Source of the DNA: Nitrosopumilus cobalaminigenes
GTDB lineage: Archaea > Thermoproteota > Nitrososphaeria > Nitrososphaerales > Nitrosopumilaceae
Direction of reading: 5' to 3'
Assembly (NCBI RefSeq): GCF_013407145.1
Contig: NZ_CP026993.1
Coordinates: 858,590 to 890,589, forward strand
Length of the DNA: 32,000 bases
Notes under the pieces: generated by a model
The model's database searches: none
Seen by the model: only the letters and a program-made list of their open reading frames with translations
What the model was told of the DNA's origin: nothing
Made by a program: the position numbers and the translations under genes
Part shown: positions 15,973 to 32,000 of the stretch, piece after piece
Layout of the letters: the number at the start of each line of letters is the position of its first letter
How positions within the stretch are numbered: the first letter of the stretch is position 1

Positions 15973-16004
15973 TCATTGATTAGTTTTATTCCGAGGAATA
16001 TAGT

Positions 16005-16022: not shown

Positions 16023-16060
16023 AATAGAATGCCCCCCGTTTAGGCGCTAAAACAGACAGG
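16022..16060 (+). repeat. outer left terminal inverted repeat (L1)
   Basis: AAATAGAATGCCCCCCGTTTAGGCGCTAAAACAGACAGG compared with the reverse complement of 29962..30000, AAATAGAATGCCCCCCTTTTACGCCTAATTTTAGACGGT. The first 16 nt are identical and roughly 70% match thereafter. Confidence 0.85.
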
Positions 16061-16111
16061 TAATTAGAAATCCATTTCTAACTTTAAATCATCTGAAAAT
16101 GAAAATATCTT

Positions 16112-16336
16112 ATGAAAACTTGGAAGGCATTAGTGATTTCTTCAAGTGTAATTATTGTTGCGAGTTTATTATTTTTTTATATGGTAAATTTATTGATGTT
16201 TTCTGAATCCTTTTCAGAACCAGGTAGTAGAGACAGAGATAAAATTCTCATTGGCGCGATTGGATGTCTTTTTTTTATTTTTATTGGAGTTGTTTCTCTT
16301 TTGTCTACTTTTAGATTCAGGAAATTTTCTTCATAA
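16112..16336 (+). CDS. small two-TM membrane protein (74 aa)
   Basis: The only ORF between the two left-end TIR copies. It has two hydrophobic helices. Confidence 0.45.
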   Translation: MKTWKALVISSSVIIVASLLFFYMVNLLMFSESFSEPGSRDRDKILIGAIGCLFFIFIGVVSLLSTFRFRKFSS

Positions 16337-16347
16337 GGTTCATCTTG

Positions 16348-16399
16348 AAATAGAATGCCTCCTTTCTAGGCAGGATTTTAGACGGTACTAGATGATTTT
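16348..16399 (+). repeat. second, internal left-end TIR copy (L2)
   Basis: AAATAGAATGCCTCCTTTCTAGGCAGGATTTTAGACGGTAC--TAGATGATTTT aligns over ~54 nt with the reverse complement of the right end, including the blocks ATTTTAGACGGTAC and TAGATGATTTT that L1 lacks. Confidence 0.8.
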
Positions 16400-16608
16400 C
16401 ATTTTTGGAACATTTAGGATCTTGTTATATTATTGAAGGTTCAATATACCCCATGGAAAAAAATTCAGAAGAATTTGAATCCTATGAAGAATATGATTGG
16501 ACTTCGCAAGAAGACCACGATTAATTCATAGGATGACAGATTTCTGTTTTTATTTCGCATGACATTCTGGGGCTATGGGTTTGGTATCCCTAGCCTTTTT
16601 TCATTTTC

Positions 16609-16647
16609 AAAAAGAATATTTCCACTATGCTTAAGTTCACACAAAAT
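16609..16647 (+). promoter_or_regulatory. shared promoter/leader box, copy 1 (core ATGCTTAAGTTCACACAAAAT)
   Basis: The 21-nt core at 16627..16647 is identical to 17866..17886, and the flanking AAAAAGA is also shared. The core ends 11 nt before the predicted start codon in both copies. Confidence 0.6.
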
Positions 16648-16658
16648 CCAGATAATTA

Positions 16659-17015
16659 TTGGGTTTTAAGAAAAGACGAAACAATCGTCATAACAACTAC
16701 AATAGAAAAAAAGGAGGAGCACGTCCAAAGTTAGCAGTTATTGGTGCTATCTCTTTAGTAATTGGAATTTTACTAATCCACTATGTCGGAGTGCCAGAGT
16801 TGCGTGCAGATAGAATGTCCGATAACCCTGCATTGATTGCAGGTTTTGTAGGCGTTGTGGGAGGAGTTTTGATGTTATTGCTTAGTTTGAGTAAAAGAAA
16901 TCAAGTTCGAGTGGGAAACGTAATAGATTCTGCAAGAGAGGCATTTAGAGATGATTGTATGTGTTGTAAATGCCAGAATTGTGACAGAAATCACAATCAC
17001 TGGACACATGATTAA
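16659..17015 (+). CDS. membrane protein with basic N-terminus, two TM helices and a Cys/His-rich C-terminus (118 aa)
   Basis: The TTG start aligns exactly with the ATG of 17898 relative to the shared promoter box. The C-terminus is CMCCKCQNCDRNHNHWTHD. Confidence 0.5.
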   Translation: MGFKKRRNNRHNNYNRKKGGARPKLAVIGAISLVIGILLIHYVGVPELRADRMSDNPALIAGFVGVVGGVLMLLLSLSKRNQVRVGNVIDSAREAFRDDCMCCKCQNCDRNHNHWTHD

Positions 17016-17033
17016 TTCATTTCAAATTAGATT

Positions 17034-17789
17034 TTAGGATTCACAACCGATTCCATCATTGTCCCTATCAAATCCATGAGGGTCACTTCCAATTACTCGG
17101 AAATTAGAATATCCAATATCCCCACAGTTTAGGTCTGGAGGATATGGTGGGATGCAGACATCAGGATATGATGGGTCACATTTTGGTGCATCATCAGTTG
17201 GTGGATTATAGTTTGATTCTTTTATTGTATAACACAACCCATCAGACCAGAGATACGGATAGTCGTTGTGACAACCATTTGATAGATATTCAGGCGAATT
17301 GTAACAGAATCCATTAGACCAATAGTATGGCTTGTTTACAGGACAATCAGGTTCTACCGTACTATGGCAGTAACCATCAGACCAGAGATACGGATTATTT
17401 TTGTGACATCCATTTTCTAAATAATCAGAGTACGAATCAGATGAACTAGTTCCTAAAAGATCATCTAGTAAATCATTTAGTTTTGCATTTTCTGTTTTTA
17501 GATTTTTATTTTCAGATTCTAAATCTAAAATCCTAGTTTCTAGGTTGTTTACCTTTTTTTGTAAAATAGAATTATCCTGATTTGGCATGTCAACTTTTAT
17601 GATATTTTGCTCAATTAGAAATGAGATAGATTCTCCAAAATCACTATCAGAAATATTCCCTTTTACCCAATAATCAGCCACTCCTTTAACCCATGCAGGA
17701 ATCTCTGATTGAGATTGTGCAGAAATTGAGGTAATTGAAATGCTAGAAATTACAATGCCAAGTATTGCAAATAATAGTAATTTTCTCAC
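17034..17789 (-). CDS. secreted protein with coiled-coil, three Cys-bracketed PY-WS-G repeats and a C-terminal Excalibur-like Ca-binding motif
   Basis: Signal peptide MRKLLLFAILGIVISSISITSISAQS. Three repeats follow: NGCHKNNPYLWSDGYCH, CPVNKPYYWSNGFCY and NGCHNDYPYLWSDGLCY. The C-terminal DRDNDGIGCE matches the Excalibur DxDxDGxxCE signature. Confidence 0.7.
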   Translation of the reverse strand: MRKLLLFAILGIVISSISITSISAQSQSEIPAWVKGVADYWVKGNISDSDFGESISFLIEQNIIKVDMPNQDNSILQKKVNNLETRILDLESENKNLKTENAKLNDLLDDLLGTSSSDSYSDYLENGCHKNNPYLWSDGYCHSTVEPDCPVNKPYYWSNGFCYNSPEYLSNGCHNDYPYLWSDGLCYTIKESNYNPPTDDAPKCDPSYPDVCIPPYPPDLNCGDIGYSNFRVIGSDPHGFDRDNDGIGCES

Positions 17790-17850
17790 AAATTATTCAA
17801 GACATACTGTAAATTAAGAATTTAAGAGAAAATCAGTTTTGGTTCTATGA

Positions 17851-17886
17851 AAAAAGAGTTCCAATATGCTTAAGTTCACACAAAAT
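17851..17886 (+). promoter_or_regulatory. shared promoter/leader box, copy 2
   Basis: See 16609..16647. The identical 21-nt core lies at 17866..17886, and the ATG at 17898 begins 11 nt after it. Confidence 0.6.
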
Positions 17887-17897
17887 TTATCAAAATT

Positions 17898-18116
17898 ATG
17901 ACATTTTGTTCTTATTGCGGTCATGAATTAGAAGCATACTCTAACTATTGCTCAGAATGCGGAAAACAAGATAAATCAAAAAAGGAAATTCTCCATGATT
18001 TCAATATAGGACAACAATCAGTTGAAAAAATGTTTGAGAAAGGAAATCGTTGTGAAAAATGCAGACATTTGATAACTGGAAAATTTTGCAAGAATTGTGG
18101 TTGTAAAAATAGTTAG
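17898..18116 (+). CDS. double zinc-ribbon protein (72 aa)
   Basis: CSYCGHEL...YCSECG and CEKCRHLI...FCKNCGC, giving two CxxC-Nn-CxxC ribbons. Confidence 0.55.
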   Translation: MTFCSYCGHELEAYSNYCSECGKQDKSKKEILHDFNIGQQSVEKMFEKGNRCEKCRHLITGKFCKNCGCKNS

Positions 18117-18232
18117 AATAATCTGCAATTACTATATGATTACTTTTGATCATACTCCGATAGAATACGATAATATCCCGAGTTAATGCGATTATACTCC
18201 GATATGACACAATTATGGTAATAATCGTGAGA

Positions 18233-18350
18233 GGCTCAGCTTTTGCTCGGGCACGATGGTTTTGCGATTATGGGTGGCTCAGCTTTTACTCAGGCACGAT
18301 GGTTTTGCGATTATGGGTGGCTCAGCTTTTACTCAGGCACGATTATATGG
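18233..18350. repeat. 43-bp tandem repeat, 2.6-2.7 copies, intergenic
   Basis: The unit GGCTCAGCTTTTACTCAGGCACGATGGTTTTGCGATTATGGGT occurs at 18233, 18276 and 18319 (partial). Copy 1 differs from copy 2 at 2 positions. The array lies between convergent genes. Confidence 0.9.
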
Positions 18351-18361
18351 AAAACAGGGCT

Positions 18362-18646
18362 CTATTGGAATTCTTTTTTCAACTCATCGTATTCTGCTTT
18401 TGTAATCTCGCCTTTTGCCAATCTAGTTTTTAGAATATTCAATGAATTGTTGTTTTGATCATTTTTGATTTTATCAGGATTCTCTTCAGTTACAGGGGGA
18501 TTGGATTGTAAATCAGACATGTCTTCTTGAAATGTGTTTTTTGATTTTCTGCTTGCTACAATTGCGATAACTACAATTATTGGAATTACAAATAAAATCA
18601 AAACTAGCAATTCAGTAGTGCCAATCATATTGACATATTGCATCAT
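18362..18646 (-). CDS. single-TM protein with C-terminal SHOCT domain (94 aa)
   Basis: N-terminal TM LLVLILFVIPIIVVIAIVA. The C-terminal LNILKTRLAKGEITKAEYDELKKEF fits the SHOCT consensus. Confidence 0.65.
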   Translation of the reverse strand: MMQYVNMIGTTELLVLILFVIPIIVVIAIVASRKSKNTFQEDMSDLQSNPPVTEENPDKIKNDQNNNSLNILKTRLAKGEITKAEYDELKKEFQ

Positions 18647-19275
18647 TTCTCAAATTCCCCCTTTAACTCATCATACTCTGACTTTGTAATCTCACCTTTT
18701 GCTAGTCTACTTTTTAGAATTCCTAAATTACTTAGATCATCATCTTTAGGATTGACATATGCTTTAGCAGATTGTGATTGTTTTGGTCTGGAATGATATG
18801 CTTTTCTTTTTTCGCAAGTCGTATGATGATTATGCAGTTCTTTACCGTTTTCTGCTAAATAATTACAGTATACACATCGCTCATAATCACTACGTCCTTT
18901 GAAGTAATCTACTACATGTGGTCTCCACATGTAAAATAGAACTATTACATCTATCACGATATATCCAATTGCAAATACATTTCCTCCAAATAGTGTCATT
19001 AGTTGAATTATCAAATTAACTATTGCAAGAATGATTACAATTACTCTACCACCACTTCTTCCGCTGAACAATGCACCAGCAATTGTAAACTCGATTAATG
19101 CTGCAATAACTATTGCAGATGCAATCCAACCTGCAAATTGACCAATTCCACCAAGAAATGAATTACCCATCATACTATTTGCAATATATCCAACCCCAAT
19201 TGCCAGAGCAAACAAGGTCAGCCCTTCAAGAATATACCAAACTCCTAGAAATGAAACGCCTAGAGGTCTACCCAT
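18643..19275 (-). CDS. multi-TM protein with Cys/His cluster and C-terminal SHOCT domain (210 aa)
   Basis: Four or so TM helices, then CVYCNYL...HNHHTTC, then the C-terminal LGILKSRLAKGEITKSEYDELKGEF. There is a 4-nt overlap with the downstream SHOCT gene. Confidence 0.7.
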   Translation of the reverse strand: MGRPLGVSFLGVWYILEGLTLFALAIGVGYIANSMMGNSFLGGIGQFAGWIASAIVIAALIEFTIAGALFSGRSGGRVIVIILAIVNLIIQLMTLFGGNVFAIGYIVIDVIVLFYMWRPHVVDYFKGRSDYERCVYCNYLAENGKELHNHHTTCEKRKAYHSRPKQSQSAKAYVNPKDDDLSNLGILKSRLAKGEITKSEYDELKGEFEK

Positions 19276-19458
19276 TAGATATCCCTCTTTTGAGAAATCA
19301 TAGAGTTTACACTAGAAATCTGAAACTCTGTCAAGTGAAGAAAATATGAATTTCTCAACATAGGGTTTGCCAAAAAATTGCATATAAACAATATTGTAGT
19401 TTAAGATGTTACAATTACGTTTACGAGTATTCATGCGTCAAACCCTGAATAAATCGAT

Positions 19459-19490
19459 GGCTCAGATTTTACTCAGGCACGATTGTATCA
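19459..19490. repeat. isolated distal copy of the first ~32 nt of the 43-bp repeat family
   Basis: GGCTCAGATTTTACTCAGGCACGATTGTAT compared with GGCTCAGCTTTTACTCAGGCACGATTATAT at 18319. Both are in the same orientation, on the far side of the two SHOCT genes. Confidence 0.8.
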
Positions 19491-19554
19491 AAAAGAGTAG
19501 AATTTGAGGGTGTTTTGTAGAAGAGTTTAGAAATCACTTTACAAATCATAAGTT

Positions 19555-20850
19555 ATGAATGTCCAAGACAAAAGAAAGAATGGGATAAACAACGATACAA
19601 TAATTTCTGAATTAGAAAAAATTCCCACTATCAATCAATATGAAGATGTTCTCATTCGATTAGCAGTTGACAAATTAACTGATTCTAATAATCTCTATTT
19701 TGCAAGGATTGATTATCTCTGTAAAGGAGATCCTTTACCTGAAGAATTTACAAAAAACTATGATGATATAATCATTACACAGTTAATCAAAAAACGTGGC
19801 GAGTTTATAGAATTTTTATCAAACTTACTGAAAAACGGTTCATCAAAAATTAATGAGATTACTGTCAGTGCATCAATGAAACAAAACTGGGATTTTGTAT
19901 CTAGACCAAGTAATTCATCTCACGGTTATGTAAAAAGTGATTTTCCTCATTTAGGTGCAGAAACTCAATTAGAATATGATCGAAATAGAGATCCTTATGC
20001 CCTAGTTTCGGGGAAAAACCTCCCTCCATTTCCAAATACATCTAGGGCAATAATTGATTTGTTTGATTTGCATCATGGAGGAAGAGAAGGAGGATGGTTA
20101 AATGAAAATAAATTGATTATAGATGTACCTGATTATCGGGTAGGAATAAAGAAACTTAGAATTGGAAAAAATAAAATTTCAGTAGAAATTAATTCAAAAT
20201 TATTAGATGAATCAAAATTAGTCTGTCAGTTTTACACAGAAAAGAAACAAGAGGTTTCATCACGCATACAAAATGGAATTTCTGAAATGTCTTGTGAGGA
20301 TATCCCTAAAGAAATTCTTGCAGTGATAAAAGAAAAGGAAACTGATGAGGTTCTAGATTTTTTTGATTACACTGTAAGTTGGGCAATGTCTGAAGAAGCA
20401 GTAGAAAAAGAGGTTCCTGAAGATGTGATTCGAGGCTGGATTAATGGGGGAGAAAATGAAACAGTGGAATTCAAGGAAGTGCTCAAACATGCAGATGATG
20501 TCATGAAGTCAGTAGTTGCTTTTGCCAATACAGAGGGGGGCGTAATTCTTGTTGGAGTATCTGATGATTGTTCTATACTGGGATATGATGTTCCAGTAGA
20601 AGATGTAAAAAATAGATTTGGCAGAATGGTTGCAGACAAATGTGATCCTCCCATAGAATTTGAAATAGAAGAAGCCGATTTGAATCCACGAATAATTGTG
20701 ATAAAAATTCCTAAAGGAAAAAGCAAGATCTATTCAGTAACTAATGGTGCAATCTATGTTAGAAGACATAGTTCGGATAGATTCATCAAAACTACTGAGT
20801 TGATGGAAGTTTTTGGAGATAAGTCTCGAAATGATAATAATTCTGTTTAA
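19555..20850 (+). CDS. protein with C-terminal AlbA_2 (Schlafen/divergent-AAA-type) putative DNA-binding domain (431 aa)
   Basis: GENETVEFKEVLKHADDVMKSVVAFANTEGGVILVGVSDD is the characteristic E.E.K....AFAN..GG.+..GV.D signature. The N-terminal ~290 aa are unassigned. Confidence 0.7.
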   Translation: MNVQDKRKNGINNDTIISELEKIPTINQYEDVLIRLAVDKLTDSNNLYFARIDYLCKGDPLPEEFTKNYDDIIITQLIKKRGEFIEFLSNLLKNGSSKINEITVSASMKQNWDFVSRPSNSSHGYVKSDFPHLGAETQLEYDRNRDPYALVSGKNLPPFPNTSRAIIDLFDLHHGGREGGWLNENKLIIDVPDYRVGIKKLRIGKNKISVEINSKLLDESKLVCQFYTEKKQEVSSRIQNGISEMSCEDIPKEILAVIKEKETDEVLDFFDYTVSWAMSEEAVEKEVPEDVIRGWINGGENETVEFKEVLKHADDVMKSVVAFANTEGGVILVGVSDDCSILGYDVPVEDVKNRFGRMVADKCDPPIEFEIEEADLNPRIIVIKIPKGKSKIYSVTNGAIYVRRHSSDRFIKTTELMEVFGDKSRNDNNSV

Positions 20851-20871
20851 GTAAACTATTTCAAAATTAAG

Positions 20872-21948
20872 TCAAGGTTGAATTTGTTCAAATAATTCCG
20901 GATAAAGTGTAATAATTATCGAAGCAATTTGTGGGAGAGATACAGATACTGAAATAATTATTCCGATAAGAGGACTCCACTCTATGACTTTATCTTTGAA
21001 AGAGATTCCAGTTAGAACATCATCTTTAGAATCATTTGTAGGGTATTTCTTTTTTAATATTTGAATTAATTCTACATTATTTAGATCAAATGAATCATAA
21101 ATTTCTTGTATATTGTCATTCATTGAACCATTCGAATTTGAAATTATTTGTGAAACAACCTCATCAGTCTTTTGAATTTGTAATTTCATGACCCTGCGCA
21201 AATATTTGTTGTAAGAATTAATCCCGAAATACAAATAATTAATTTTCTCAAATTCGTTTTCCAAATGTAAGCTTAATTCTAAACTCGATTTTGCCAGATA
21301 GTACCTATAATCAGTGTAAATCAACAGCATTAAAAATTTCCAAATTGCAGATAATGAAATAATTGCAGATGCTAATGTAATAACAAGGAAAATTGTTCGT
21401 AAATATAACGAATCATTTTCAGATAGTTGTACATCATAAGAACCCAACACCAAGGCCATCATTGCAAATATTATCATTATTGGAATGGATGCCATCAAAA
21501 CTTTACTTACCCATCTAAATTCAACTACAGTTTTCATGGTGCCATTTACATCAAAGAATACTCTTGCCGATATTGTCGTAGGGGAAAGGAAATATCGTAT
21601 TGGAGCTAAAGTAAAAATAATAGGATAAAAAATTACTCCCAAAAATGCAAAAACAACATATTCGTTATAAAATATTGAAGGCGCGTAAACAATCAGGGCA
21701 AATAAGAATGCAAATGCACTGACAGCTACAGATGGAATGGATATCAAATAGCGAGCAGGTCGTTCAAGGGCATCCTTTTTAATTTCATTATGAGGGGTTT
21801 TATCCTCATAAACTAATTTTAGAATCCATTTGATGTTTAATGTATTGTATATTTCTCGATTTATTTTTACAGGAAGTTTTTGTACATATGAAGGAATTTG
21901 TTTAATTTTTGAACCTAAGTTTAATTCCACAATTTTACATAAACTCAT
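20872..21948 (-). CDS. multi-TM membrane protein with cytoplasmic C-terminal region (358 aa), function unknown
   Basis: At least 6 hydrophobic helices in the central part. It lies immediately downstream of polB on the same strand, with an 11-nt gap. Confidence 0.65.
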   Translation of the reverse strand: MSLCKIVELNLGSKIKQIPSYVQKLPVKINREIYNTLNIKWILKLVYEDKTPHNEIKKDALERPARYLISIPSVAVSAFAFLFALIVYAPSIFYNEYVVFAFLGVIFYPIIFTLAPIRYFLSPTTISARVFFDVNGTMKTVVEFRWVSKVLMASIPIMIIFAMMALVLGSYDVQLSENDSLYLRTIFLVITLASAIISLSAIWKFLMLLIYTDYRYYLAKSSLELSLHLENEFEKINYLYFGINSYNKYLRRVMKLQIQKTDEVVSQIISNSNGSMNDNIQEIYDSFDLNNVELIQILKKKYPTNDSKDDVLTGISFKDKVIEWSPLIGIIISVSVSLPQIASIIITLYPELFEQIQP

Positions 21949-21959
21949 ACTTTAATATA

Positions 21960-23741
21960 TTAGATCGTAATTTTTTGTATATAATTTAATGAAATAGACA
22001 TTGAATCATTACATTCCTTTTGATCAATTGATTCAATTGTACCCAACCACAATCTTTTCCTATCCGCATTAAGATTAACTTCTCTAGTTATTGGTGCAAT
22101 CTTTCCAATGTCTTGTATCCTATCTGATAGTATGCTTGAACGTAATCTAGAATTTCTCAACACATTAAATTTGTAAAATAATTTCCCGTCTTTTTCAAAT
22201 GTATCCAAGTGTTCAATTTCCTTAGACCCTAATCGTCCCAAACCACGTTGTTTCCAAATCCCGTTAAATCGATAGAATCCATTTTGTAAATAGAAGGTAT
22301 CTTGACTCTCACCATCATATGAGAAATCGCCTAATCGTTTAGAATCTAAATTCAGTTTCTTGGTAGTACAGATTGAATCAGTCGCAAAGGCCACAATGTC
22401 TCCCTCAAGCCTGTTTCTAGTCACAAATTCGTACAATTTGGCACGAGTATACCCTGTGATGAATGCAAACATTACAGGATTAAACAAATTCCCCATTACA
22501 CCATTGATCTTTTGGCCAGTCTTCCCATAAATTGAATTTAAGATAATTTTGATTGGTTGCTCTAATGGATTATTTTCTTTCTTTAGTTTCTGTCTTTTTT
22601 GATACAAAGATTGAATGAATTTTCTGTATGGATAAATATCAGATGTACTGATAAATTGATAACCTTCAAGAATCCTGTAAAGATTTTTTTTGCAGGCTTG
22701 GAGTTCTGATAACGTACAATACGTTACAAATTTCCCTGAAGGGTACAATATGACATTATTTGTTTTAAATGGGAATGGTGCCACTATACTATCATCTGGA
22801 ATATCACATAATACTTTGAAGAATCCCAACTTTGTATCTGCGTGTATTGATTTTCTTTTAATCCATTTACCTTTAGATAAATCTGGAAAGTGGGCAATGG
22901 CATCAGGGTATGCAGAGTTGATATCATAAAGATAGGCCTTGCCAATGTATCCTCGCTTGATTAATTCAATTCGTCCTCCAAAATATGACTTGAATGCTAA
23001 CTCTTGAATTGGATAAGGAGTATCAACGAATCTAGGTAGATTGATCCCATTGTTGATCAGAACTTTTTCTGCCAAATATCCTGCACTGGTCCATTTGGCA
23101 GGATAAAATGAAAATGCATTGCTAAATAGTGTAATCCATTTTTCAGATAATTCTTTTGTAAATTTACAATCTTGTATACAATAGTTTCTAATTTTTTTCT
23201 TGTTGTGATTGTAAAATCGTAATGTAAATTCTTTACGCTTTTCTTTCATAGAGAGATATTCTGAAGATAATTCTCCAATGTTTTTCTGATATGCATTACT
23301 TAGAGAACCTCCAAAGAATTGCATTATATCAAAAAACAATACTGAATGATGACCTTTCTTGATTCGAAGAGATTTGCCAGGAAAATATTCTAGATGGTAA
23401 TCCCCCCACCAGAAATCTAATTTTCCAGTGAAGCGATATCGATACAGTTCTGAGCCTAGCAGTTTGAGGATAACTTCGGCATCATAGGATAGATTATAGA
23501 AAAAGTTCCATGAACCGTGATATTTTTTACAAAATAGCCATTTTATCACGGATTCAGGTGTGATTTTGTCTAAATATCGCCCATCAGAGTCCGCAATTAG
23601 AAAGATATCTCCTTTGTAGGTCTCAGTGTCTAAGGCATGAATTTGTCGTAATTTAGAATGTGCAGAGTTGCGATTTTGAGGCCTTTTGGTGTAGACCTTG
23701 GATAAATCCCGGCACTCTGTTACGGGGAAGGATTCTGCCAT
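21960..23741 (-). CDS. polB: family B DNA polymerase, protein-primed type (pPolB)
   Basis: ExoI is ALDTETY (D38/E40), ExoII is YNLSYD (D87) and ExoIII is YCIQD (Y187/D191). YFGG lies at residues 253-256. Motif A is LYDINSAYP (D273), motif B is KIILNSIYGKTG (K398) and motif C is VAFATDSI (D455). At 593 aa it is similar in size to phage phi29 pol. Confidence 0.9.
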   Translation of the reverse strand: MAESFPVTECRDLSKVYTKRPQNRNSAHSKLRQIHALDTETYKGDIFLIADSDGRYLDKITPESVIKWLFCKKYHGSWNFFYNLSYDAEVILKLLGSELYRYRFTGKLDFWWGDYHLEYFPGKSLRIKKGHHSVLFFDIMQFFGGSLSNAYQKNIGELSSEYLSMKEKRKEFTLRFYNHNKKKIRNYCIQDCKFTKELSEKWITLFSNAFSFYPAKWTSAGYLAEKVLINNGINLPRFVDTPYPIQELAFKSYFGGRIELIKRGYIGKAYLYDINSAYPDAIAHFPDLSKGKWIKRKSIHADTKLGFFKVLCDIPDDSIVAPFPFKTNNVILYPSGKFVTYCTLSELQACKKNLYRILEGYQFISTSDIYPYRKFIQSLYQKRQKLKKENNPLEQPIKIILNSIYGKTGQKINGVMGNLFNPVMFAFITGYTRAKLYEFVTRNRLEGDIVAFATDSICTTKKLNLDSKRLGDFSYDGESQDTFYLQNGFYRFNGIWKQRGLGRLGSKEIEHLDTFEKDGKLFYKFNVLRNSRLRSSILSDRIQDIGKIAPITREVNLNADRKRLWLGTIESIDQKECNDSMSISLNYIQKITI

Positions 23742-24037
23742 ATTGCATCAGGTATTGATACTTGGTTTCCTCTACGTCGTTGGGATAGTTGAGAGCGAAT
23801 CTGGTTGTACTTTAATCCGGGAAAATTATTTCTGATTTGTCTAATGTAATTGTGATATCGTCTTAACTTTCCAGAACGTGTAAGATTTGCTTTTCTTTTT
23901 TTAATCAGAGGTTTTTGTTTTCTATCTATCTTTTCTAACTTCTTTTTAATTTGAAAACGAAGTTCTTTGACAAGTTTGGTATTTGGGAATATTTTTAATG
24001 CTTGTAATTGATCAAGCAAGTCTTGTTTTGTAGCCAT
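23720..24037 (-). CDS. small basic protein (105 aa), possible nucleic-acid binding
   Basis: Start chosen at M37 of the track ORF (MATKQDLL), which avoids overlap with 24057..24392. Arg/Lys-rich (KKRKANLTRSGKLRRYHNYIRQIR...QRRRG). It overlaps the polB start by 22 nt. Confidence 0.5.
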   Translation of the reverse strand: MATKQDLLDQLQALKIFPNTKLVKELRFQIKKKLEKIDRKQKPLIKKRKANLTRSGKLRRYHNYIRQIRNNFPGLKYNQIRSQLSQRRRGNQVSIPDAIWQNPSP

Positions 24038-24056
24038 GATAAAAAAGAAAAAGAAG

Positions 24057-24392
24057 TCAGAGAATAATCTCTGATCTTCTAATTGGACGATTGTTTTTAG
24101 ATAATCCCAAGTATGTTTTGAGTTGGAATTTTGTATCTGCAACAATCTTTTTGTGTTTTACTAGTTCATTCCAGGACTTTAGTAGAGAACTATTGTGTGA
24201 TTCATGTGACTTTAGTGGAAGTAATCGGTCTTCCCATGAATCATGTATTCTTTGTTGTACGTGAACATTTGTAGTTAATTCTGAATCCATTGTTTCAGTT
24301 TTTACTACTTTACATTCAAGTACATCTGGTTTGTCAGGATTTTTGGAATGACATTCACCCCATTTGATAAAAGAGATGCTTTCAGTACTCAT
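24057..24392 (-). CDS. hypothetical protein (111 aa)
   Basis: ORF in the polB-upstream operon, with a 4-nt overlap with the preceding gene. Confidence 0.5.
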   Translation of the reverse strand: MSTESISFIKWGECHSKNPDKPDVLECKVVKTETMDSELTTNVHVQQRIHDSWEDRLLPLKSHESHNSSLLKSWNELVKHKKIVADTKFQLKTYLGLSKNNRPIRRSEIIL

Positions 24393-24619
24393 TTTTTATC
24401 TCCCTTTGAAGGAGAGAGTTTGATGAATTTTTCTCCCTTTTCCTGTACTAGTTCAACCTTGAACTTTTTGGTTCTCCCATCAATACAGTTTTCAAGTGCT
24501 ACTCTTGGAAGAGTGACTGTGTTTGTTGTATTGTTTTTAGAGATTTTTCGCAGACCAAATGATGTGGTCGTTGAATTTGTAGTCCTTGGTTCACATGTTT
24601 TTGTGGATTTTTTCTCCAT
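24389..24619 (-). CDS. small protein, possible AbrB/SpoVT-like DNA-binding fold (76 aa)
   Basis: VTLPRVALENCIDG..KKFKVELVQEKGEKFIKLSP resembles the swapped-hairpin AbrB pattern. It is the first gene of the operon leading to polB. Confidence 0.45.
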   Translation of the reverse strand: MEKKSTKTCEPRTTNSTTTSFGLRKISKNNTTNTVTLPRVALENCIDGRTKKFKVELVQEKGEKFIKLSPSKGDKK

Positions 24620-24675
24620 GAATAATATAAAACAGATTTTAATATAGGCTATTTCTAACGATATATGTAAGATAT

Positions 24676-25317
24676 ATGGCCAATTATAGACGAGAACTAT
24701 CTAAAATTGAGCAAAAAGATGTCCATTCCAGATACAAAATACATACAGATGATTATGGAGGAATTTTCACCAAAGACAAACGTCGAAAGTTACTTGGTCT
24801 TAAACAAAAACAAGGAAAGTATCATGAAGATACTGCGGATTTTTGGTATGATGTGAGGTCTAGTGTAAAAAGTGGTTTGATGGATCTAGAGTTATTTTTT
24901 GAAGTAGCCGATAAAAATCAAATCAAAGATGTACTTTATGATGCAGAACAAAAAGCACAATTAGATTTACTAAAACAAAAACTTGAACTTAACAAACAAT
25001 ATGAACTAGAAAGACAAATTCCATCCTTCACACGTGTCTTATCTGTATTATTTCAAAAATATTACAAATCTCGCAAGTACAAATTATCTACAGGTGAAAC
25101 TAGAAAATATTCTGAACATGTTGAAGAAGATGATACATGGAGGGCAGAAATTATTGAAAAAATGATCAACACTTGTATTATTTATTTAAGAGATCATAAT
25201 TTGATTTCTTCAAAAGCACATGAACGATTGACTGATGAATTTATTGATATGGTTAATGTTGAAATTGCTAGAGGAACAAAACTGTCTTTAAATGAGAGAG
25301 TAAAAGGTTCTGTTTAA
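24676..25317 (+). CDS. hypothetical protein (213 aa)
   Basis: Clean ORF, divergent from the polB operon across a 56-nt AT-rich spacer. No recognised domain. Confidence 0.6.
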   Translation: MANYRRELSKIEQKDVHSRYKIHTDDYGGIFTKDKRRKLLGLKQKQGKYHEDTADFWYDVRSSVKSGLMDLELFFEVADKNQIKDVLYDAEQKAQLDLLKQKLELNKQYELERQIPSFTRVLSVLFQKYYKSRKYKLSTGETRKYSEHVEEDDTWRAEIIEKMINTCIIYLRDHNLISSKAHERLTDEFIDMVNVEIARGTKLSLNERVKGSV

Positions 25318-25321
25318 AAAA

Positions 25322-26935
25322 CTATTTTTCATCATGATCAATACTGTGTTTTGAATAATATTTCTCTAGAAAATTTAACTTTATGTTTTCTTCTTTGATA
25401 CACCTTATTACAACCATTAACCCTTCATGTGAAAAACCTATTTCACCTTTTTGATTTTTACTATAAAGATGAGGATACTGTTTCAAAATTTGCTTATATT
25501 TTACCTCATTTACAAATTCATCATTGAATATTTTTTTATAATCTTCAGAAAGATAATTATCTTCCAACCACTTTGCTTTTTCATCGGATAAATGCATAAT
25601 TTTTAGTGGTTCGCTTAATTCTTTGTATTGTTTTACAATTTCTGCGATATTTTTAATTTTATTTTTCAAAATTTTTCCAAAATCAGGATCATAAAATCCT
25701 GCAGACATTATTGAAACAAACAAACGTTTGCTAAATTTCTGTATCGTATCCATATCTAGAGGGTAATGAGCCAGAAACTTGGTCATTTTACCATCGACAT
25801 AGTGACCAAAGTCAATATGTAAAAATTTCTCCCCTTTAGAAACATCAAATCGTAGATTATAATCGATTTTTTTCTCATCTAAAAGATCAAAACGAATTAC
25901 AGCGCTTCCTCTTGAATTTTGAGTTACATTCTGATAGTAAAAACTATCTTCGGTATTGAGTTCCTTTGATATTCCAAATAAGAAAAATTCAGGAATAGTA
26001 ATTTGAGATGTATGATCATTGTCAGATTCGTATTCAAATGGATATAGCGCAGAAAAATACATCCAAGGTAAAGGAGTATAATTTGCATGAAAAAGAGATA
26101 CATGCATCATACTTAGAAAATTTTCTTGCTGGTATGATTTTTCAAGTAACATTTTACAGGATTTGATAAATAATTCAGGAGTCTTGACTTTTGGATTAGG
26201 TTCATTTTCATATCTACTTGATAAATTGAATGAAATCGTCTTTTCATTTTTCAAATCATAAAATATGCAACCCAGAAACACATCAGGACTAAATTTTGAT
26301 TTATTGGATTTTGAATAAATATAGAAATAACTGAATGCAAAACAATTTTGTATTTCTTTTGATTTGTTTTTTAATTCCAAGATTTTTTGAATAGAAGTAC
26401 GATTTTTATCAATTATTTCACAATCAATTTCATCATTATTTTCATAAAGTATCAATACATTAGAAAATAAATTAAACATGTTTTTTCCGGAATTGTTTTG
26501 TTGATATAATTTAATTTCAGAATCTGCATATTCTTTAAGAAAATCAATTATTTTTTTGAAATTTTTTGAATTTATTTTTTCAACATGAACACAAGGCTTT
26601 CGCCGCTTGTCAAAGTGCTCATAAGTATACATTTCAACATCGGATTTGGCAGTATGATCTGAAATTTTATCCATGTAGACTCCATCGATATTTGCAAATT
26701 GATTATATTGTAAAGCAAAAAGTGCACCTAATTCTGAGCAATCAACTGTTATTCGTTCATTGTTTTTTTCTAAAAAAATATGTCCAAAATTCTTTGTTGT
26801 TTCAAGTTCCCCTTTTTCATTTTTCGCCATAGCGATAGTCCCGCTTCTGTCAACTACGATGTACCCTTGTGAAAGTAGTTCTTTGAATTCTTCCTCGGTT
26901 TTAATTTTAATTAGTTTCTTACTTTTTTTATCCAA
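25322..26935 (-). CDS. large hypothetical protein (537 aa), no recognisable domain
   Basis: Long uninterrupted ORF in AT-rich DNA, which is unlikely by chance. The antisense ORFs 26566..26832 and 26760..27008 are shadows. Confidence 0.7.
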   Translation of the reverse strand: MDKKSKKLIKIKTEEEFKELLSQGYIVVDRSGTIAMAKNEKGELETTKNFGHIFLEKNNERITVDCSELGALFALQYNQFANIDGVYMDKISDHTAKSDVEMYTYEHFDKRRKPCVHVEKINSKNFKKIIDFLKEYADSEIKLYQQNNSGKNMFNLFSNVLILYENNDEIDCEIIDKNRTSIQKILELKNKSKEIQNCFAFSYFYIYSKSNKSKFSPDVFLGCIFYDLKNEKTISFNLSSRYENEPNPKVKTPELFIKSCKMLLEKSYQQENFLSMMHVSLFHANYTPLPWMYFSALYPFEYESDNDHTSQITIPEFFLFGISKELNTEDSFYYQNVTQNSRGSAVIRFDLLDEKKIDYNLRFDVSKGEKFLHIDFGHYVDGKMTKFLAHYPLDMDTIQKFSKRLFVSIMSAGFYDPDFGKILKNKIKNIAEIVKQYKELSEPLKIMHLSDEKAKWLEDNYLSEDYKKIFNDEFVNEVKYKQILKQYPHLYSKNQKGEIGFSHEGLMVVIRCIKEENIKLNFLEKYYSKHSIDHDEK

Positions 26936-27017
26936 TTGCTTATTTCAATCAAATTATGTATTTCAATTTAATTATCCAAGTAAAACATTATTTGTCAATA
27001 AAATATGAAGATAATAC

Positions 27018-27809
27018 ATGTGGTTTGATAATCCTTTGTTACCGCCTTTACTAGTTCTTGTTGCTATTGGTATTGCTGTTGGATATATGATAGGATTTGT
27101 TGATAATGATGTAGATTCTGCAAGTGAATTGGGGATTTATCTTGCTGCAATTTCAATTGGATTGACAGGAGCAGTTTTCATATTGCAAAGTAAAACTAGC
27201 CATGAAGTTAAAGATATTGTTAAGAAAATGGATGATGAAAAAAAGGATAGAAAAGAATATGTCCTCAGAGGATTGGTAAACGCGTTTAGAGAAACACGTT
27301 ATAATCTGCAATTGATGCGTTCAGAATTACTGACATTGGCACGATCCAATGGAGTAAATGGAAATAAGCAAACAATAGAAAACAATTGGAAAATTATTAA
27401 CAATTCAGGAGTTGACAGAATTCAATTTTTAATAACATTGTCTCATGATGTTATTTCAACCTCTAAATTAGATCAAATTGAAACTGTCAAAAATATTATG
27501 AAATCCGAATATGATTCAGATTATAACACCATGAGTACTATAGTATCGTTCTTGTTAACTCAATCAGATTATGTATTTAGAGATGATCTTAAAGAATTAC
27601 GACTTAAAATGGCAAAAGAAGAAATTTCAAAATTAGTATCAGAATTAAAAAGTGGGGCGGATGAAAATTCATTAAGTTTTCAGAGAAATAAAAGGCGGTG
27701 GGAATCCTATCTATATTTACCAACAGATGATGAAATCAAAAATGAGTGTGAATCTAAACTTGAAGCAACTTCTTCTGAAGACAGCACTCTGCCAGATTTT
27801 GAACCATGA
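27018..27809 (+). CDS. two-TM N-terminal anchor plus helical cytoplasmic domain protein (263 aa)
   Basis: TM helices LLPPLLVLVAIGIAVGYMIGF and LGIYLAAISIGLTGAVFIL. The 3' end overlaps the 3' end of cas1 by 56 nt (convergent). Confidence 0.6.
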   Translation: MWFDNPLLPPLLVLVAIGIAVGYMIGFVDNDVDSASELGIYLAAISIGLTGAVFILQSKTSHEVKDIVKKMDDEKKDRKEYVLRGLVNAFRETRYNLQLMRSELLTLARSNGVNGNKQTIENNWKIINNSGVDRIQFLITLSHDVISTSKLDQIETVKNIMKSEYDSDYNTMSTIVSFLLTQSDYVFRDDLKELRLKMAKEEISKLVSELKSGADENSLSFQRNKRRWESYLYLPTDDEIKNECESKLEATSSEDSTLPDFEP

Positions 27810-28770
27810 CCTTAGCAACAGTAATCTCTTGAACTGATTTCAGACCTGATTTTGTCTTCTTTCCGTGCCTAAAATCATACTTTCTTTCCTGTGAAAATTG
27901 CCTTTCTAATAATTCTAAAAACCTTCTAATCAAATCGTATTCAATTACTACAGTTCCATCTTTGGTGTAACTATACTCTTTGAGTTTGATTCTATTTCTC
28001 TTCTCTTTGTTATTTGCAATTTTATACACAGAATAGTCCACTAACCATCTGAATGGCTCAATCAAATCATAAACTAGGGGTTGAAATCCTGTGTGAGTTT
28101 TATGCATAAATCCAAAGTAAGGATCAAGACCAATTCCACAGACAAATTTTGATATCTCACCTGCCAAAACAGAATACCCATAATTCAGTAAAGCATTGAT
28201 GATGTCAGTTGCATCATTTTTGGCAATTCTGATAGAGGATTGATTCCTTGAATGAAATCCATATTTTTCCGGGATGAATTTGGCATATTCTCTAAAGTAG
28301 ATTATGGCGGCAGATGATTCTCTATCAGGTAATGAAGTAATGCCACTACCAATTAGTTTGAGCAGTTTTAGTTGAGATTCTTTTTTGGCCGAGATGATTT
28401 GTTTTCTCAGATATCCACATTTTGACTCGTTTCGAAACGTATCATATTGTGCTATTCGGTATTTTGTTCCAGTTAGAGAATCCATCATGCCATTACAGAA
28501 AGTGACGGGTTTTCCGTGATTATCAAGTAAAATGACATTTCGGTTATTTTGAGAAAGTAGCGATAATGCCTCAGTGGAGACGTAGCCCTTTCCTGAAATA
28601 ACAATTTTCTCATATGGCATGTTTTTGACAAACCATTCCTCAATTTCAGGCTCAGAAAATGGGTCGTGATTTGATTTTAGGATAATTTTAGAATTTTTAA
28701 CAGAAATAGAATGACCATAGCCTTTGAGGAATTTTATGTTATAGTGGTTTTTTTGACCTTTAAGAGTCAA
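27754..28770 (-). CDS. cas1: Cas1 family integrase (casposase), solo
   Basis: ESSAAIIYF (E151), the signature INALLNYGYSVLAGEI....GLDPYFGFMHKT (H223) and PLVYDLIEPFR (D235/E238), and an N-terminal beta-rich domain. 338 aa. There is no cas2 or CRISPR in the window. Confidence 0.9.
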   Translation of the reverse strand: MTLKGQKNHYNIKFLKGYGHSISVKNSKIILKSNHDPFSEPEIEEWFVKNMPYEKIVISGKGYVSTEALSLLSQNNRNVILLDNHGKPVTFCNGMMDSLTGTKYRIAQYDTFRNESKCGYLRKQIISAKKESQLKLLKLIGSGITSLPDRESSAAIIYFREYAKFIPEKYGFHSRNQSSIRIAKNDATDIINALLNYGYSVLAGEISKFVCGIGLDPYFGFMHKTHTGFQPLVYDLIEPFRWLVDYSVYKIANNKEKRNRIKLKEYSYTKDGTVVIEYDLIRRFLELLERQFSQERKYDFRHGKKTKSGLKSVQEITVAKVMVQNLAECCLQKKLLQV

Positions 28771-29665
28771 ATTCTTTAATTTGATATTCTACATCTTCAA
28801 ACGGATTTTCTAATTGATTAAGCTGATTGTAAATCAGAGTAATTGCAATGTTCAAACAATTCCAAGCATTCTCTTGAGTCACTTCTCTTTTTTTCCTATG
28901 AACAATATCATTTCTTAATTTTCTTAATTTTGTAAAGCATTCATATCCTTTTGAATCAAGTTTCTCAGAAAACGTAAAGGCCTCAATATAATGACTAGTG
29001 CTCCAAGAATGATGATTTTTTAATGCTTGTCTTTCCTCCTTTGTTCTCTTCAAATCTTTGACAAATTTTTCCCAAACTCTTTCTATAACACTTTCAATAA
29101 CAATCCAGGAATTAAGAAAAGATATGCTAAACAATTCATCTTGATACATTCCACCAGATTCACCAATTATCAACAAATCATTTTTGAAACTATCATTGTC
29201 AAGGAAACGAGCTGATTGATCAATTAACATTTCCATAAGATGTTTTTGAATTGGTTGTCTTTCAATTGTTGACCAATATTCATAGTCTACATCATCTTCA
29301 CGTTTACTTTCTTGAATTACCCGTAAAGATTTACTCAAACTACCTGCAGCTACAACATAATCCCAATCTTCTTTCCAAGTAAATCCACAGATATCATTTT
29401 TTGTAATAAATCTGGCCCGATGAAATTTTGTGATAAATACTGCAAAAAGTACATTGAGAAATTCAAATGCTTCATCTTCGTTTTTCCCAATAGGACAAAC
29501 AAAACAATCATCAGTTACTAGAACTCGCAATCCTTCGGATGTAGTAGTGTCGATAACAATGGGTCTTTTAATCGTCGATATTCGTGGTAGTTTCTCAGGA
29601 TTTGCTTCATAAAGTTGAGATGGTGGATAAAAAAATGTGCCAAAACCAATCGTTCTTCCAGTCAT
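28760..29665 (-). CDS. protein with C-terminal HEPN-like domain (R-x4-H), 301 aa
   Basis: KLRKLRNDIVHRK (R251-N-D-I-V-H256, nt 28898..28915) sits in a helical C-terminal half. The stop overlaps the cas1 start by 11 nt, and the start overlaps the upstream ORF stop by 4 nt. Confidence 0.6.
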   Translation of the reverse strand: MTGRTIGFGTFFYPPSQLYEANPEKLPRISTIKRPIVIDTTTSEGLRVLVTDDCFVCPIGKNEDEAFEFLNVLFAVFITKFHRARFITKNDICGFTWKEDWDYVVAAGSLSKSLRVIQESKREDDVDYEYWSTIERQPIQKHLMEMLIDQSARFLDNDSFKNDLLIIGESGGMYQDELFSISFLNSWIVIESVIERVWEKFVKDLKRTKEERQALKNHHSWSTSHYIEAFTFSEKLDSKGYECFTKLRKLRNDIVHRKKREVTQENAWNCLNIAITLIYNQLNQLENPFEDVEYQIKEFDS

Positions 29666-29889
29666 GTATTGTCTCTAATCTTAGTCATTTTTACAGATTT
29701 CCTAGTTAATTCATCAATTGCACTCTGAATAATAGAATGATCTCTATTTGCCATTTGACTTAACATTTGAGCAGTTTCTTTCAAATCTTGATTGTTAAAT
29801 CCTTGAGCACTTTGCTTCCAATTCTCAGCATAGAATTTTAGCATATTTTGATAGTTGGACAATATCTCAATTGCCTTGGCTTTTGTCAT
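29662..29889 (-). CDS. small helical protein (75 aa), first gene of the cas1 operon
   Basis: ORF beginning ~110 nt inside the right TIR terminus. A TATA-like CTTTAAG lies ~30 nt upstream. Confidence 0.5.
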   Translation of the reverse strand: MTKAKAIEILSNYQNMLKFYAENWKQSAQGFNNQDLKETAQMLSQMANRDHSIIQSAIDELTRKSVKMTKIRDNT

Positions 29890-29946
29890 TACTTTGTCAT
29901 AATGAACATCATGATCTTAAAGAATTTGCAACAAAATAGAATCTGA

Positions 29947-30000
29947 AAAATCATCTAGTGTACCGTCTAAAATTAGGCGTAAAAGGGGGGCATTCTATTT
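29947..30000 (-). repeat. right terminal inverted repeat (R)
   Basis: The reverse complement is AAATAGAATGCCCCCCTTTTACGCCTAATTTTAGACGGTACACTAGATGATTTT. It pairs with L1 (16022) and, over a longer span, with L2 (16348). Confidence 0.85.
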
Positions 30001-30018
30001 TTATTCTTTATCGATAAA
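30001..30018. repeat. right copy of the target-site duplication; also the last 5 codons plus stop of aEF-2
   Basis: TTATTCTTTATCGATAAA is identical to 16005..16022. Confidence 0.9.
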
Positions 30019-32000
30019 TTCTGAAACACCTGGTGGTTCTGGTGCCAATCCTTTTCTCTTTCTAATATCAGCTACTGCTGGTCCTAACATTGATTTTGGA
30101 ACTTCAGTCCATTCTTTGAAAGAAGTATTCCAAGTTGCACGACCGGCAGTCTGTCCTCTCATAGCTTCTGATAGTGTAAAAGTTTCTGATGCAGGAATCT
30201 CTCCAACGACAATACTTGTTGCACCTTTTTGTGACATATCAAGTACTTTACCTCGTTTACCTGAAAGTATAGTTGCAACATTTCCAACCAAATCAGTTGG
30301 TACACGAACTTCAATTGCCAAAGTTGGCTCCAACACTGCAGTACCTGCTGTTAGCAAAGCACCCATACATGCACGTCTTGATGCAGGTCCTAATTGTGAC
30401 AAACCTCTGTGTGCTGTATCCTCGTGAGGAACAAAGTGAGTAAAGATGAATTTACAATCCCTCATCTGTTCTTTACAGAGAGGACCTTCTTTCATTACTT
30501 CTTCAAATCCTGAATTAATAGAATCAGTGGACTCTTGTACAAATTGAACACCTTTTGTTCCATTAATCAAAACATTACCACGTGAATCAAATTTCATAAT
30601 TCTCTTGATTGTGTCAGTATCCCATCCTGCACCTTTGAGTAAATCAGATACCACCTTCTTATCTTTGATGTCAGATATTTCACCAGTTCTTAGCATATGT
30701 GCAATTTCAGGTTCTAGTGGTTCTACTTTCATGAAAATTTTATTGTGACGGTTTGGTGATTTTGCCATGATTGGCTCACATGGACCTTTTACAGTTTCTC
30801 TGTAGTTAATCAAAGGCTCTGATGTTACAATCTCAACTTTTGCATCTTGGATTCTGTGTGTTGCAACATCCAAGTGTAGCACACCCATTCCTGCAACAAT
30901 TGTCTCACCTGATTCCTCATCAATTTTTACAACAAGGTTAGGATCCTCAATGGTTAATTGTCTTAAAACTTCGACTAGTTTAGGTAAATCTTTAGGATGT
31001 TTTGGCTCGATGGCAATTTGAACAACTGGTTCTGACACATACTTTACACCTTCAAACATTGGAATGTCTTTAATTGATGATAGAGTGTTTCCTGCTCTAC
31101 ACTCAGTTAATCCTAATAATGCTGGAATATTTCCTGCTCCTAGTTCACCAACTTGTTCTCTTTGGTTACCCATAAAGAAATTGACGGATTGAACTCTGCC
31201 TTCTCTTTTCTCATCTATAATGTTCAAAGTTTGACCATCTTTGATAGTACCAGAAAATAATCTTCCAATTGCAACAGGACCTGCTGCAGGATCTAACACC
31301 ATGTTTACAACCATCATAATTGTTGGACCATCATCATCTCCTGCAAGCAATGCTTTACCTACATCAGATTCTAAATCGCCTTTCCAAATTTGTGGGATTC
31401 TGTACTTGATTGCATCGTGTGGTGCTGGATGATGTTTTACAACCATTCCAAGAACAGCATCAGCTAGTGGTGCTTTCTCAATAAGGTCTGGAAGTTTTTC
31501 ATCAGTGTATGCATCAATTACATCTTTGAATGTGATTCCTCTTTCTTTCATTAAATCAGTGTTAATTGCCCATCTGTCTTTTGCTGAACCAAATGTCACA
31601 CTTGCATCTTGAATAGATACTTTCCATTTCTCTTTGTATTCAGGTTCTGCATAAGTGTCAACTAGAGTATTGAAATTTGAAACAACTTCAGCTAATTGTG
31701 CTTGCATTTTTTCTGGAGTTAATCTTAGTTCTTTGATTAATCTGTCTACTTTGTTGATAAACAAAACGGGTTTTACTCTCTCCTCTAGTGCCATTCTAGT
31801 TACTGTTTCTGTTTGAGTCATGATACCTTCTACTGCATCACAGACAACTACAGCACCATCAATTGCTCTTAGTGAACGAATTACCCTTCCACTGAAATCT
31901 ACGTGGCCTGGAGTATCAATCATGTTAATTACGTATTCTTGGTCTTTTTGTGCAAAGAGCAAAGTAACGTTTGCTTGGTAAATTGTAATTCCTCTTTCCT
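30001..32000 (-). CDS. fusA: translation elongation factor aEF-2 (5'-partial; N-terminus lies beyond the window)
   Basis: The reading frame stays open to the window edge (..RGITIYQANVTLLFAQKD..). The G-domain motif is DTPGHVDF. The diphthamide-site region is HEDTAHRG. 653+ aa of clear EF-2/EF-G family sequence, ending ..SEFIDKE. Confidence 0.95.
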   Translation of the reverse strand, partial: ERGITIYQANVTLLFAQKDQEYVINMIDTPGHVDFSGRVIRSLRAIDGAVVVCDAVEGIMTQTETVTRMALEERVKPVLFINKVDRLIKELRLTPEKMQAQLAEVVSNFNTLVDTYAEPEYKEKWKVSIQDASVTFGSAKDRWAINTDLMKERGITFKDVIDAYTDEKLPDLIEKAPLADAVLGMVVKHHPAPHDAIKYRIPQIWKGDLESDVGKALLAGDDDGPTIMMVVNMVLDPAAGPVAIGRLFSGTIKDGQTLNIIDEKREGRVQSVNFFMGNQREQVGELGAGNIPALLGLTECRAGNTLSSIKDIPMFEGVKYVSEPVVQIAIEPKHPKDLPKLVEVLRQLTIEDPNLVVKIDEESGETIVAGMGVLHLDVATHRIQDAKVEIVTSEPLINYRETVKGPCEPIMAKSPNRHNKIFMKVEPLEPEIAHMLRTGEISDIKDKKVVSDLLKGAGWDTDTIKRIMKFDSRGNVLINGTKGVQFVQESTDSINSGFEEVMKEGPLCKEQMRDCKFIFTHFVPHEDTAHRGLSQLGPASRRACMGALLTAGTAVLEPTLAIEVRVPTDLVGNVATILSGKRGKVLDMSQKGATSIVVGEIPASETFTLSEAMRGQTAGRATWNTSFKEWTEVPKSMLGPAVADIRKRKGLAPEPPGVSEFIDKE

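Follow-up and report, generated by a model that had tools for sequence, protein, structure and literature searches.

The closest described systems to the locus treated here are family 1 casposons of the same genus. NitAR1-C1 of Nitrosopumilus koreensis AR1 and NitSJ-C1 of Nitrosopumilus sp. SJ are both inserted at the 3' end of the aEF-2 gene, which reads F-I-D-K-E-stop (PMC4046053). In vitro, the family 1 casposase of N. koreensis generates a target site duplication (TSD) of 13 bp, ATTGATAAAGAGT, within an apparent repeat of 22 bp; the duplication has an essential TTT leader before it and AAA behind it, and its bases A1, A11 and T13 are critical (PMC8464041). Casposases measure 347 aa in N. 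koreensis and 404-405 aa in family 2 (PMC8464041). Three small genes are a hallmark of family 1 and form, together with Cas1 and PolB, its defining five-gene core (PMC4046053, PMC6563490). The tandem pair NitNF5-C1/C2 in ef-2 of Ca. Nitrosopumilus adriaticus NF5 documents the re-use of EF-2, with several termini per locus (PMC6563490).

Two further systems share the chemistry of integration. Family 2 casposons, such as AciBoo-C1 of Aciduliprofundum boonei and the elements of Methanosarcina mazei, also integrate by means of Cas1 at the 3' ends of conserved genes, recognise a leader-like upstream determinant and create a duplication through staggered joining. They differ from the locus described below in their tRNA targets, a duplication of ~14 bp, a casposase with a C-terminal HTH and another type of PolB. 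CRISPR Cas1-Cas2 likewise attacks the borders of a short repeat beside a leader in a staggered fashion, and the repeat is duplicated by repair. On this analogy new insertions are expected on the leader side, that is next to EF-2, and tandem copies or terminus-like remnants do follow the distal duplication at other loci.

Here we describe a 32,000-nt stretch (the window) from the genome of a Nitrosopumilus, a marine ammonia oxidiser among the archaea, in which a 19-bp direct repeat marks what is, with a probability of roughly 90%, a family 1 casposon integrated at the stop codon of aEF-2, an essential translation factor. Earlier publications have described both this target and what its repeat represents (PMC4046053, PMC6563490, PMC8464041), and the case is textbook family 1 behaviour. 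The element resembles NitAR1-C1 and NitSJ-C1 in its TTT leader, its 13-bp duplication (11/13 identical) and its AAA distal flank (PMC8464041), in an apparent repeat that exceeds the true duplication and, compared by published description, in a compact HTH-less Cas1, a PolB of the protein-primed type and the three small genes. It differs from them in its cargo of Schlafen/AlbA_2, HEPN-like and SHOCT membrane proteins, in an apparent repeat of 19 bp instead of 22 bp and in an extra internal left terminus. With NitNF5-C1/C2 it has in common the nuclease or defence-like cargo of family 1 elements; its three termini (two left, one right) and the lack of a middle duplication set it apart from a clean tandem pair. 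Unlike a CRISPR locus, the window has neither Cas2 nor an array, and in place of a spacer of 30-40 bp it received a self-replicating element of 14 kb.

The repeat, its target gene and the element

The window contains exactly two copies of the 18-mer TTATTCTTTATCGATAAA, one at 16005-16022 and one at 30001-30018; the expectation was 0 in 100 dinucleotide-preserving shuffles, even with two mismatches allowed. Base-by-base extension carries the identity one base further to the left, which yields a 19-bp repeat, TTTATTCTTTATCGATAAA, with a left, distal copy at 16004-16022 and a right, EF-2-proximal copy at 30000-30018. The identity ends sharply on both sides (g/t before, a/t after). An earlier note on this DNA had reported the 18-bp repeat: both copies stand exactly where it placed them, and the true identity is one base longer. 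On the minus strand, which is that of EF-2, the right copy reads TTT ATC GAT AAA GAA TAA A, or F-I-D-K-E-stop, and can be divided into a Phe codon TTT, then ATCGATAAAGAAT, then AAA. The repeat also has symmetries of its own. Positions 30007-30018 (TTTATCGATAAA, the Phe-Ile-Asp-Lys codons) form a perfect 12-bp palindrome, and the 19-mer opens with TTTAT and closes with ATAAA, so that each cut site reads TTT/AT on its own strand. Palindrome and symmetric cut sites may be relevant to recognition by a symmetric casposase.

The target gene occupies 30001-32000 on the minus strand with its C-terminal 665 codons and the stop, and it runs past the end of the window. Its frame is open to 31998 and contains the Pfam families GTP_EFTU, EFG_III, EFG_IV, EFG_C and EF-G_D2; the last 300 aa are 90-98% identical to EF-2 of Nitrosopumilus. 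The protein ends in EFIDKE followed by the stop, like its relatives, in agreement with the earlier view that aEF-2 is intact at the occupied site.

At both ends of the insert, inverted termini directly adjoin the repeat. The sequence AAAAATAGAATGCCCCCC... begins at 16020, its reverse complement finishes at 30002, and under a 13-bp duplication we infer casposon boundaries of 16020-30002, or 13,983 bp. The right terminal inverted repeat, R (29942-30002, minus strand), starts with AAAAATAGAATGCCCCCC when read inward, takes part in the inverted-repeat pairs I1 and I3 and aligns with the termini of related casposons at loci L126 and L022. The outer left terminus, L1 (16020-16058, plus strand), matches R perfectly over the first 18 nt only and diverges deeper in. 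The 3' end of the casposon terminus reads ...CATTCTATTTTT-3'.

The gene content is that of a family 1 element. The casposase, a Cas1 homologue of 338 aa (27754-28770, minus strand; Pfam Cas_Cas1, E = 4e-41), shares 82% aa identity with Cas1 of the L064 casposon. Among PDB structures it matches 6opm best (E = 3e-25), a structure of the family 2 casposase from M. mazei (PMC8464041). The Pfam match stops at residue 289 and Pfam reports no HTH family, which leaves a compact casposase without a detected C-terminal HTH, as is characteristic of family 1. A family B DNA polymerase of the protein-primed type is encoded at 21960-23741 (minus strand; PF03175 DNA_pol_B_2, E = 4e-26), with 68% aa identity to the PolB of the L126 casposon and 62% to that of L064. 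Upstream of polB, three small genes fill 23720-24619 on the minus strand (23720-24145, 24057-24392 and 24389-24619), and for each of them tblastn finds a homologue in the same position in L126 and L064.

The remainder of the element is more individual. The left-hand cargo (16059-21948) encodes a Schlafen/AlbA_2 protein (19555-20850), SHOCT-domain membrane proteins and a zinc-ribbon protein according to Pfam, and has no homologues in the related casposons compared. The right-hand region (24676-29889) comprises the casposase and element-specific genes, among them a weak HEPN-like protein (28760-29665) that adjoins the casposase. Schlafen/AlbA_2 and HEPN are domain types often tied to defence or abortive infection. 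The cargo also holds a 43-nt tandem repeat at 18233-18343 (2.6 copies, 97%), with a fourth, diverged copy 1.1 kb away at 19454-19496. A BLAST search of the whole element against 80 related EF-2 loci returned no close relative of the cargo; matches were limited to the termini, to Cas1 and PolB of L064 (64-76% nt) and to the PolB regions of L007 and L021 (65-69% nt). The Cas1 gene adjoins EF-2 in the window and lies at the far end in L064, from which it follows that both orientations exist.

Altogether the locus combines a Cas1 without CRISPR, the family 1 type of PolB, the three small genes, terminal inverted repeats, a TSD backed by an empty site and a position at the 3' end of aEF-2. Neither other cas domains (Pfam, element ORFs) nor a CRISPR-like array (tandem-repeat scan) were found. 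The traits of family 2, namely an HTH casposase, a tRNA target and a duplication of ~14 bp, are not those of this element: no HTH was detected, the window has no tRNA gene and the target is EF-2. The 3' end of aEF-2 is the commonest, though not a universal, target of family 1.

Empty alleles and the length of the duplication

A comparison with empty-site alleles, which the earlier note had proposed, was carried out through an exact look-up of a 74-aa ORF of the left flank (15748-15972) in Logan assemblies. It gave four contigs (L081-L084) from four sequencing runs, all with an empty site and a single 19-mer at the EF-2 stop. Their upstream gene is EF-2, with 149 C-terminal residues identical to the window, and the 74-aa flank ORF is 100% identical as well. 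The one 19-mer joins EF-2 directly to the left flank of the window (junction ...GAATTTATCGATAAAGAATAAACTATATTCCTCGG... / ...CCAGGTGTTTCAGAATTTATCGATAAAGAATAAACTATATTCCTCGGAATAAAAC...), and the contigs align as one colinear segment across the reconstructed empty site; none of them contains a terminal-repeat motif. Relative to the empty site the insert shifts the sequence by 13,996 bp. DNA identity to the window amounts to ~95% in EF-2 and 99% over the first 250 nt of the flank, by which the contigs appear to stem from a close relative, not demonstrably from the same population. They fit either a never-occupied site or precise excision. The empty-site DNA pattern GAYAARGARTAAACTATATTCCTCGG had no match in the JGI metagenome collection. 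Exact-protein look-ups of the casposase, a right-end 75-aa ORF, a 74-aa ORF between the two left termini and the neighbour gene at 14693-15106 were null, and the occupied allele itself was therefore not seen elsewhere.

The left flank outside the insertion begins with a lineage-specific stretch of 708 bp (15296-16003) with two 74-aa ORFs. Most relatives lack this stretch, but the empty allele has it, which means that it predates the casposon insertion. In most relatives the conserved neighbour gene (14693-15106 in the window) and a palindromic 24-nt motif follow 55-100 nt past the EF-2 stop, and in the window this region is 708 bp away from the left repeat. Parts of the stretch have homologues inside an inserted element at L013 (13731-14000) and at another locus, L003 (2346-2574), and it may represent older mobile DNA. 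A candidate for an older decayed junction at ~15314 (ATTCTTAATTC) matches in 8/11 bases, requires a 2-nt gap and was rejected as not significant. At 15213-15282 the window has three perfect tandem 24-nt units that include the palindrome TGTTTG..CATTTGAACAAACA. In L002, L041, L048 and L054 the motif is found once or twice, 55-100 nt downstream of the EF-2 stop; it may serve the neighbour gene as an operator or promoter element. Far outside the casposon, at 9431-9677, a further 24-nt unit is perfectly repeated in tandem (10.3 copies, 100% identity).

How much of the 19 bp was duplicated on integration? The window alone leaves the length unreadable, with symmetric duplications of 9, 11, 13, 15, 17 or 19 bp all fitting, because a 19-mer of the form TTTAT...ATAAA leaves perfect inverted termini at any symmetric split. 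Comparison with other elements makes a true duplication of 13 bp (ATCGATAAAGAAT) most likely. In the target stretch of the window (...GAATTTATCGATAAAGAATAAACTATATT...), the 13-mer matches ATTGATAAAGAGT at 11/13 positions; A1, A11, T13 and the TTT leader are kept, and the differences fall on positions 3 and 12 (C and A in the window). Natural elements set bounds on both sides. A 3-kb element at the same site in L045 has a TTC leader and a distal flank AGC, so that its repeat starts exactly at A1 and measures 13-14 bp; of these lengths, 13 bp alone preserves five A/T at each end of the element. At a metagenomic far end, L139, the flank GAATC places the end of the repeat exactly at the T of the stop codon. 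The natural left bound derives from one element, L045, together with the in-vitro work on another casposase, that of N. koreensis. On this basis the proximal TSD copy would lie at 30003-30015 and the distal one at 16007-16019, each reading ATCGATAAAGAAT on the minus strand, and the element in the window would support a 13-bp stagger in vivo.

These bounds revise the earlier account of the repeat in two respects. Its TSD of ~14-15 bp belongs to family 2, while family 1 has been mapped at 13 bp (PMC8464041) with the bounds of L045 and L139. The extra bases, which it had put down to chance A/T identity, are a systematic 3+3 that arises where A5/T5 termini meet TTT/AAA flanks. The duplication, said to regenerate the last five codons, accordingly covers four sense codons and the T of the stop.

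A simple mechanism would account for these features. The casposase would attach each 3' end of the element to one target strand, with the two joining points 13 bp apart. One of them would fall at TTT/A, between the Phe and Ile codons, on the strand of EF-2, and the other at T/AAA on the opposite strand, following the T of the stop codon. Gap repair would then duplicate ATCGATAAAGAAT. With an element that starts with A5 and ends with T5, TTT and AAA as target flanks would add three matches on each side and produce the apparent 19 bp. The stop codon of the occupied allele would consist of a T from the duplication and AA from the casposon terminus; as the terminus would supply the last two bases of the stop, EF-2 would remain unchanged.

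Other origins of the repeat have to be weighed against this reading. The left copy could be the remnant of a partial EF-2 duplication or pseudogene, for which nothing speaks except the 19 bp themselves. The last 500 nt of EF-2 have the 19-mer as their sole significant nucleotide match elsewhere in the window, a tblastn search of EF-2 against the whole window gave no second EF-2-like region, and neither side of the left copy resembles EF-2 in protein or DNA. The earlier note had looked for such similarity left of 16004, where it is indeed absent, but on the wrong side: EF-2 lies to the right of the repeat, and a decayed duplicate would therefore extend rightward from 16022, where the inverted terminus of the element is found instead. 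The null similarity search and an empty allele with one 19-mer refute this origin, which retains a vanishingly small probability, and uphold the view of a short target duplication as opposed to a gene duplication. It is also highly improbable, if somewhat less so, that the repeat is the attachment-site core of an element moved by a site-specific recombinase, shared before integration and not made by staggered cuts. It is true that many integrated elements of archaea insert at the 3' ends of genes, which short direct repeats then restore (PMC6563490). Against this stand the casposon-type inverted termini that adjoin the repeat on both sides and a homologous casposase that makes such a duplication in vitro at a homologous sequence (PMC8464041). 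A Pfam search of 18 element ORFs of at least 70 aa, EF-2 and one flank ORF yielded no recombinase of the tyrosine or serine type, an absence that is not absolute as four larger element ORFs have no Pfam match at all. A casposase product longer than 13 bp, of 15 bp or the full 19 bp, is improbable to a lesser degree. The sequence of the window fits 15, 17 or 19 bp, family 2 casposases give ~14-15 bp (PMC8464041), and the apparent repeats listed by Krupovic et al. in 2014 reach 27 nt in length, overlapping the termini (PMC4046053). Yet the L045 repeat begins at A1, is at most 14 bp long and leaves five A/T at both ends only with 13 bp; the repeat at L139 cannot go beyond the T of the stop codon, and the in-vitro mapping gave 13 bp (PMC8464041).

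Occupancy of the site in relatives and the third terminus

Casposons at the end of aEF-2 are not restricted to the window. A scan of EF-2 C-termini in species-representative genomes covered 80 Nitrosopumilaceae loci, 77 of them scorable. In 22-24/77 genomes the T of the stop is immediately followed by a full casposon terminus, in 7-9/77 by only the first 8-12 nt of one, and in 46/77 the EF-2 site is empty. This suggests that the site is occupied in ~30%, roughly a third, of Nitrosopumilaceae species genomes, often stacked with remnants. The statement in the earlier note that thaumarchaeal casposons target the 3' end of aEF-2 is borne out both by these genomes and by published family 1 elements (PMC4046053, PMC6563490). 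The stop codon is TAA in 22/22 occupied and 32/46 empty sites, the rest being TAG or TGA (Fisher p = 0.003, ignoring phylogeny), which is consistent with a casposon that supplies the AA of the stop. The last sense codon is GAG in 14/22 occupied and 7/46 empty sites (p = 1e-4, again ignoring phylogeny) and GAA in the window. At positions 5-8, where the published 'ruler' is ATAA, 12/22 occupied sites have ACAA.

Two types of terminus occur at the site, AAAAATAGAA... and AAAAAGG(G/C)AAAGCCCCCC..., and the occupied loci vary in their architecture. L126 is a complete relative of 12.2 kb with near-perfect termini of 73 nt, and L064 consists of tandem elements. Casposons with a TTC leader were found in L022 (NZ_OZ253671.1) and L079 (OZ245020.1), with distal ends past the 10-kb flank. 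The L045 element (10914-13892) has casposon termini and the 13-bp duplication, no Cas1 or PolB, and two paralogous 220-aa ORFs; it looks like a non-autonomous derivative. The 660-bp remnant of L059 (10901-11560) has a terminus of one type on its EF-2 side (AAAAATAGAATGCC...) and of another at its distal end (...GGGAAAGCTCTCTCCC), and a single base distinguishes the two copies of its duplication; it resembles a hybrid that a deletion across stacked elements left behind. In L058 (~8033-8060) and L017 (~12039-12075) a casposon terminus adjoins the reverse complement of the duplication (ACTCTTTATCGAT), as would be expected if recombination between stacked casposon termini had inverted the intervening segment. 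Metagenomes contributed 36 genuine distal junctions among loci L094-L207. In most of them the start of a further terminus (AAAAATAGAA... or AAAAAGG...) comes after the duplication, and often no more than 10-12 nt of it are left. Stacking and decay seem to be the rule at the EF-2 site. A search for the far-end pattern in IMG/VR matched five viral contigs, none of which passed the terminus filter.

The element in the window has three termini. In addition to L1 and R, an inner left terminus, L2 (16346-16405, plus strand), sits 325 bp inside L1; its A-run is degenerate, and it forms pair I1 with R over 41 nt at 83%. L2 and R share the subterminal block ATTTTAGACGGTAC(AC)TAGATGATTTT, which complete relatives have at both ends. 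The interval between L1 and L2 contains the ORF of 74 aa mentioned above (16112-16336), a predicted membrane protein. A decayed duplication beside L2 was sought and rejected: the best register has 6/13 matches, about chance for AT-rich DNA.

Two histories could lead to this arrangement. We lean slightly towards a composite element that uses L1 and R as its ends, because the L1 and R termini are perfect and L2 is decayed. The alternative, which is possible but on the whole doubtful, invokes two events: an older casposon ending in L1 would have been followed by a second, L2...R, on its EF-2 side, and a later deletion would have taken out the middle duplication together with all but 325 bp of the older element. 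The two repeat copies would then stem from different insertions at the same target. Such a history finds some support in the terminus that bears the long subterminal match to R, typical of complete relatives such as L126: this is L2, not L1. The site is, moreover, rich in tandem casposons and distal remnants, as at L064, L059 and most of the 36 far ends from metagenomes, and tandem family 1 casposons have been published (PMC6563490). It is weakened by the lack of a recognisable duplication beside L2, by a deletion that would need to end within 2-3 nt of the L2 terminus and by an empty allele that is devoid of both parts; the perfect 18 nt shared by L1 and R, alongside a degenerate L2, are expected of the working ends of one composite. 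Under either history both copies of the repeat are casposase products on the same target.

Starting from the composite, a wider picture can be drawn, though only tentatively and at odds below even. The element would be a composite with a decayed L2 whose L1 came from another casposon lineage and which moved as a unit into the EF-2 site of the window, and the EF-2 stop of Nitrosopumilaceae would be a polar stacking site, where new casposons enter beside the EF-2 'leader', older ones decay distally to stubs of 10-12 nt and stacked elements exchange their termini.

The casposon of the window offers a clean natural example, with occupied and empty alleles and an intact casposase and polymerase, and its target agrees base for base with the determinants defined in vitro for N. 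koreensis (TTT leader, A1, A11 and T13). It also illustrates how an essential gene tolerates a 14-kb insert at its stop codon, with a cut behind the T and TAA completed by the A-run of the element. The frequent occupancy and stacking at the EF-2 site may be of interest for research on the transition from casposons to CRISPR. If the joint reading of a composite element and a polar stacking site were true, the end of EF-2 would provide a natural parallel to the leader-proximal growth of a CRISPR array.
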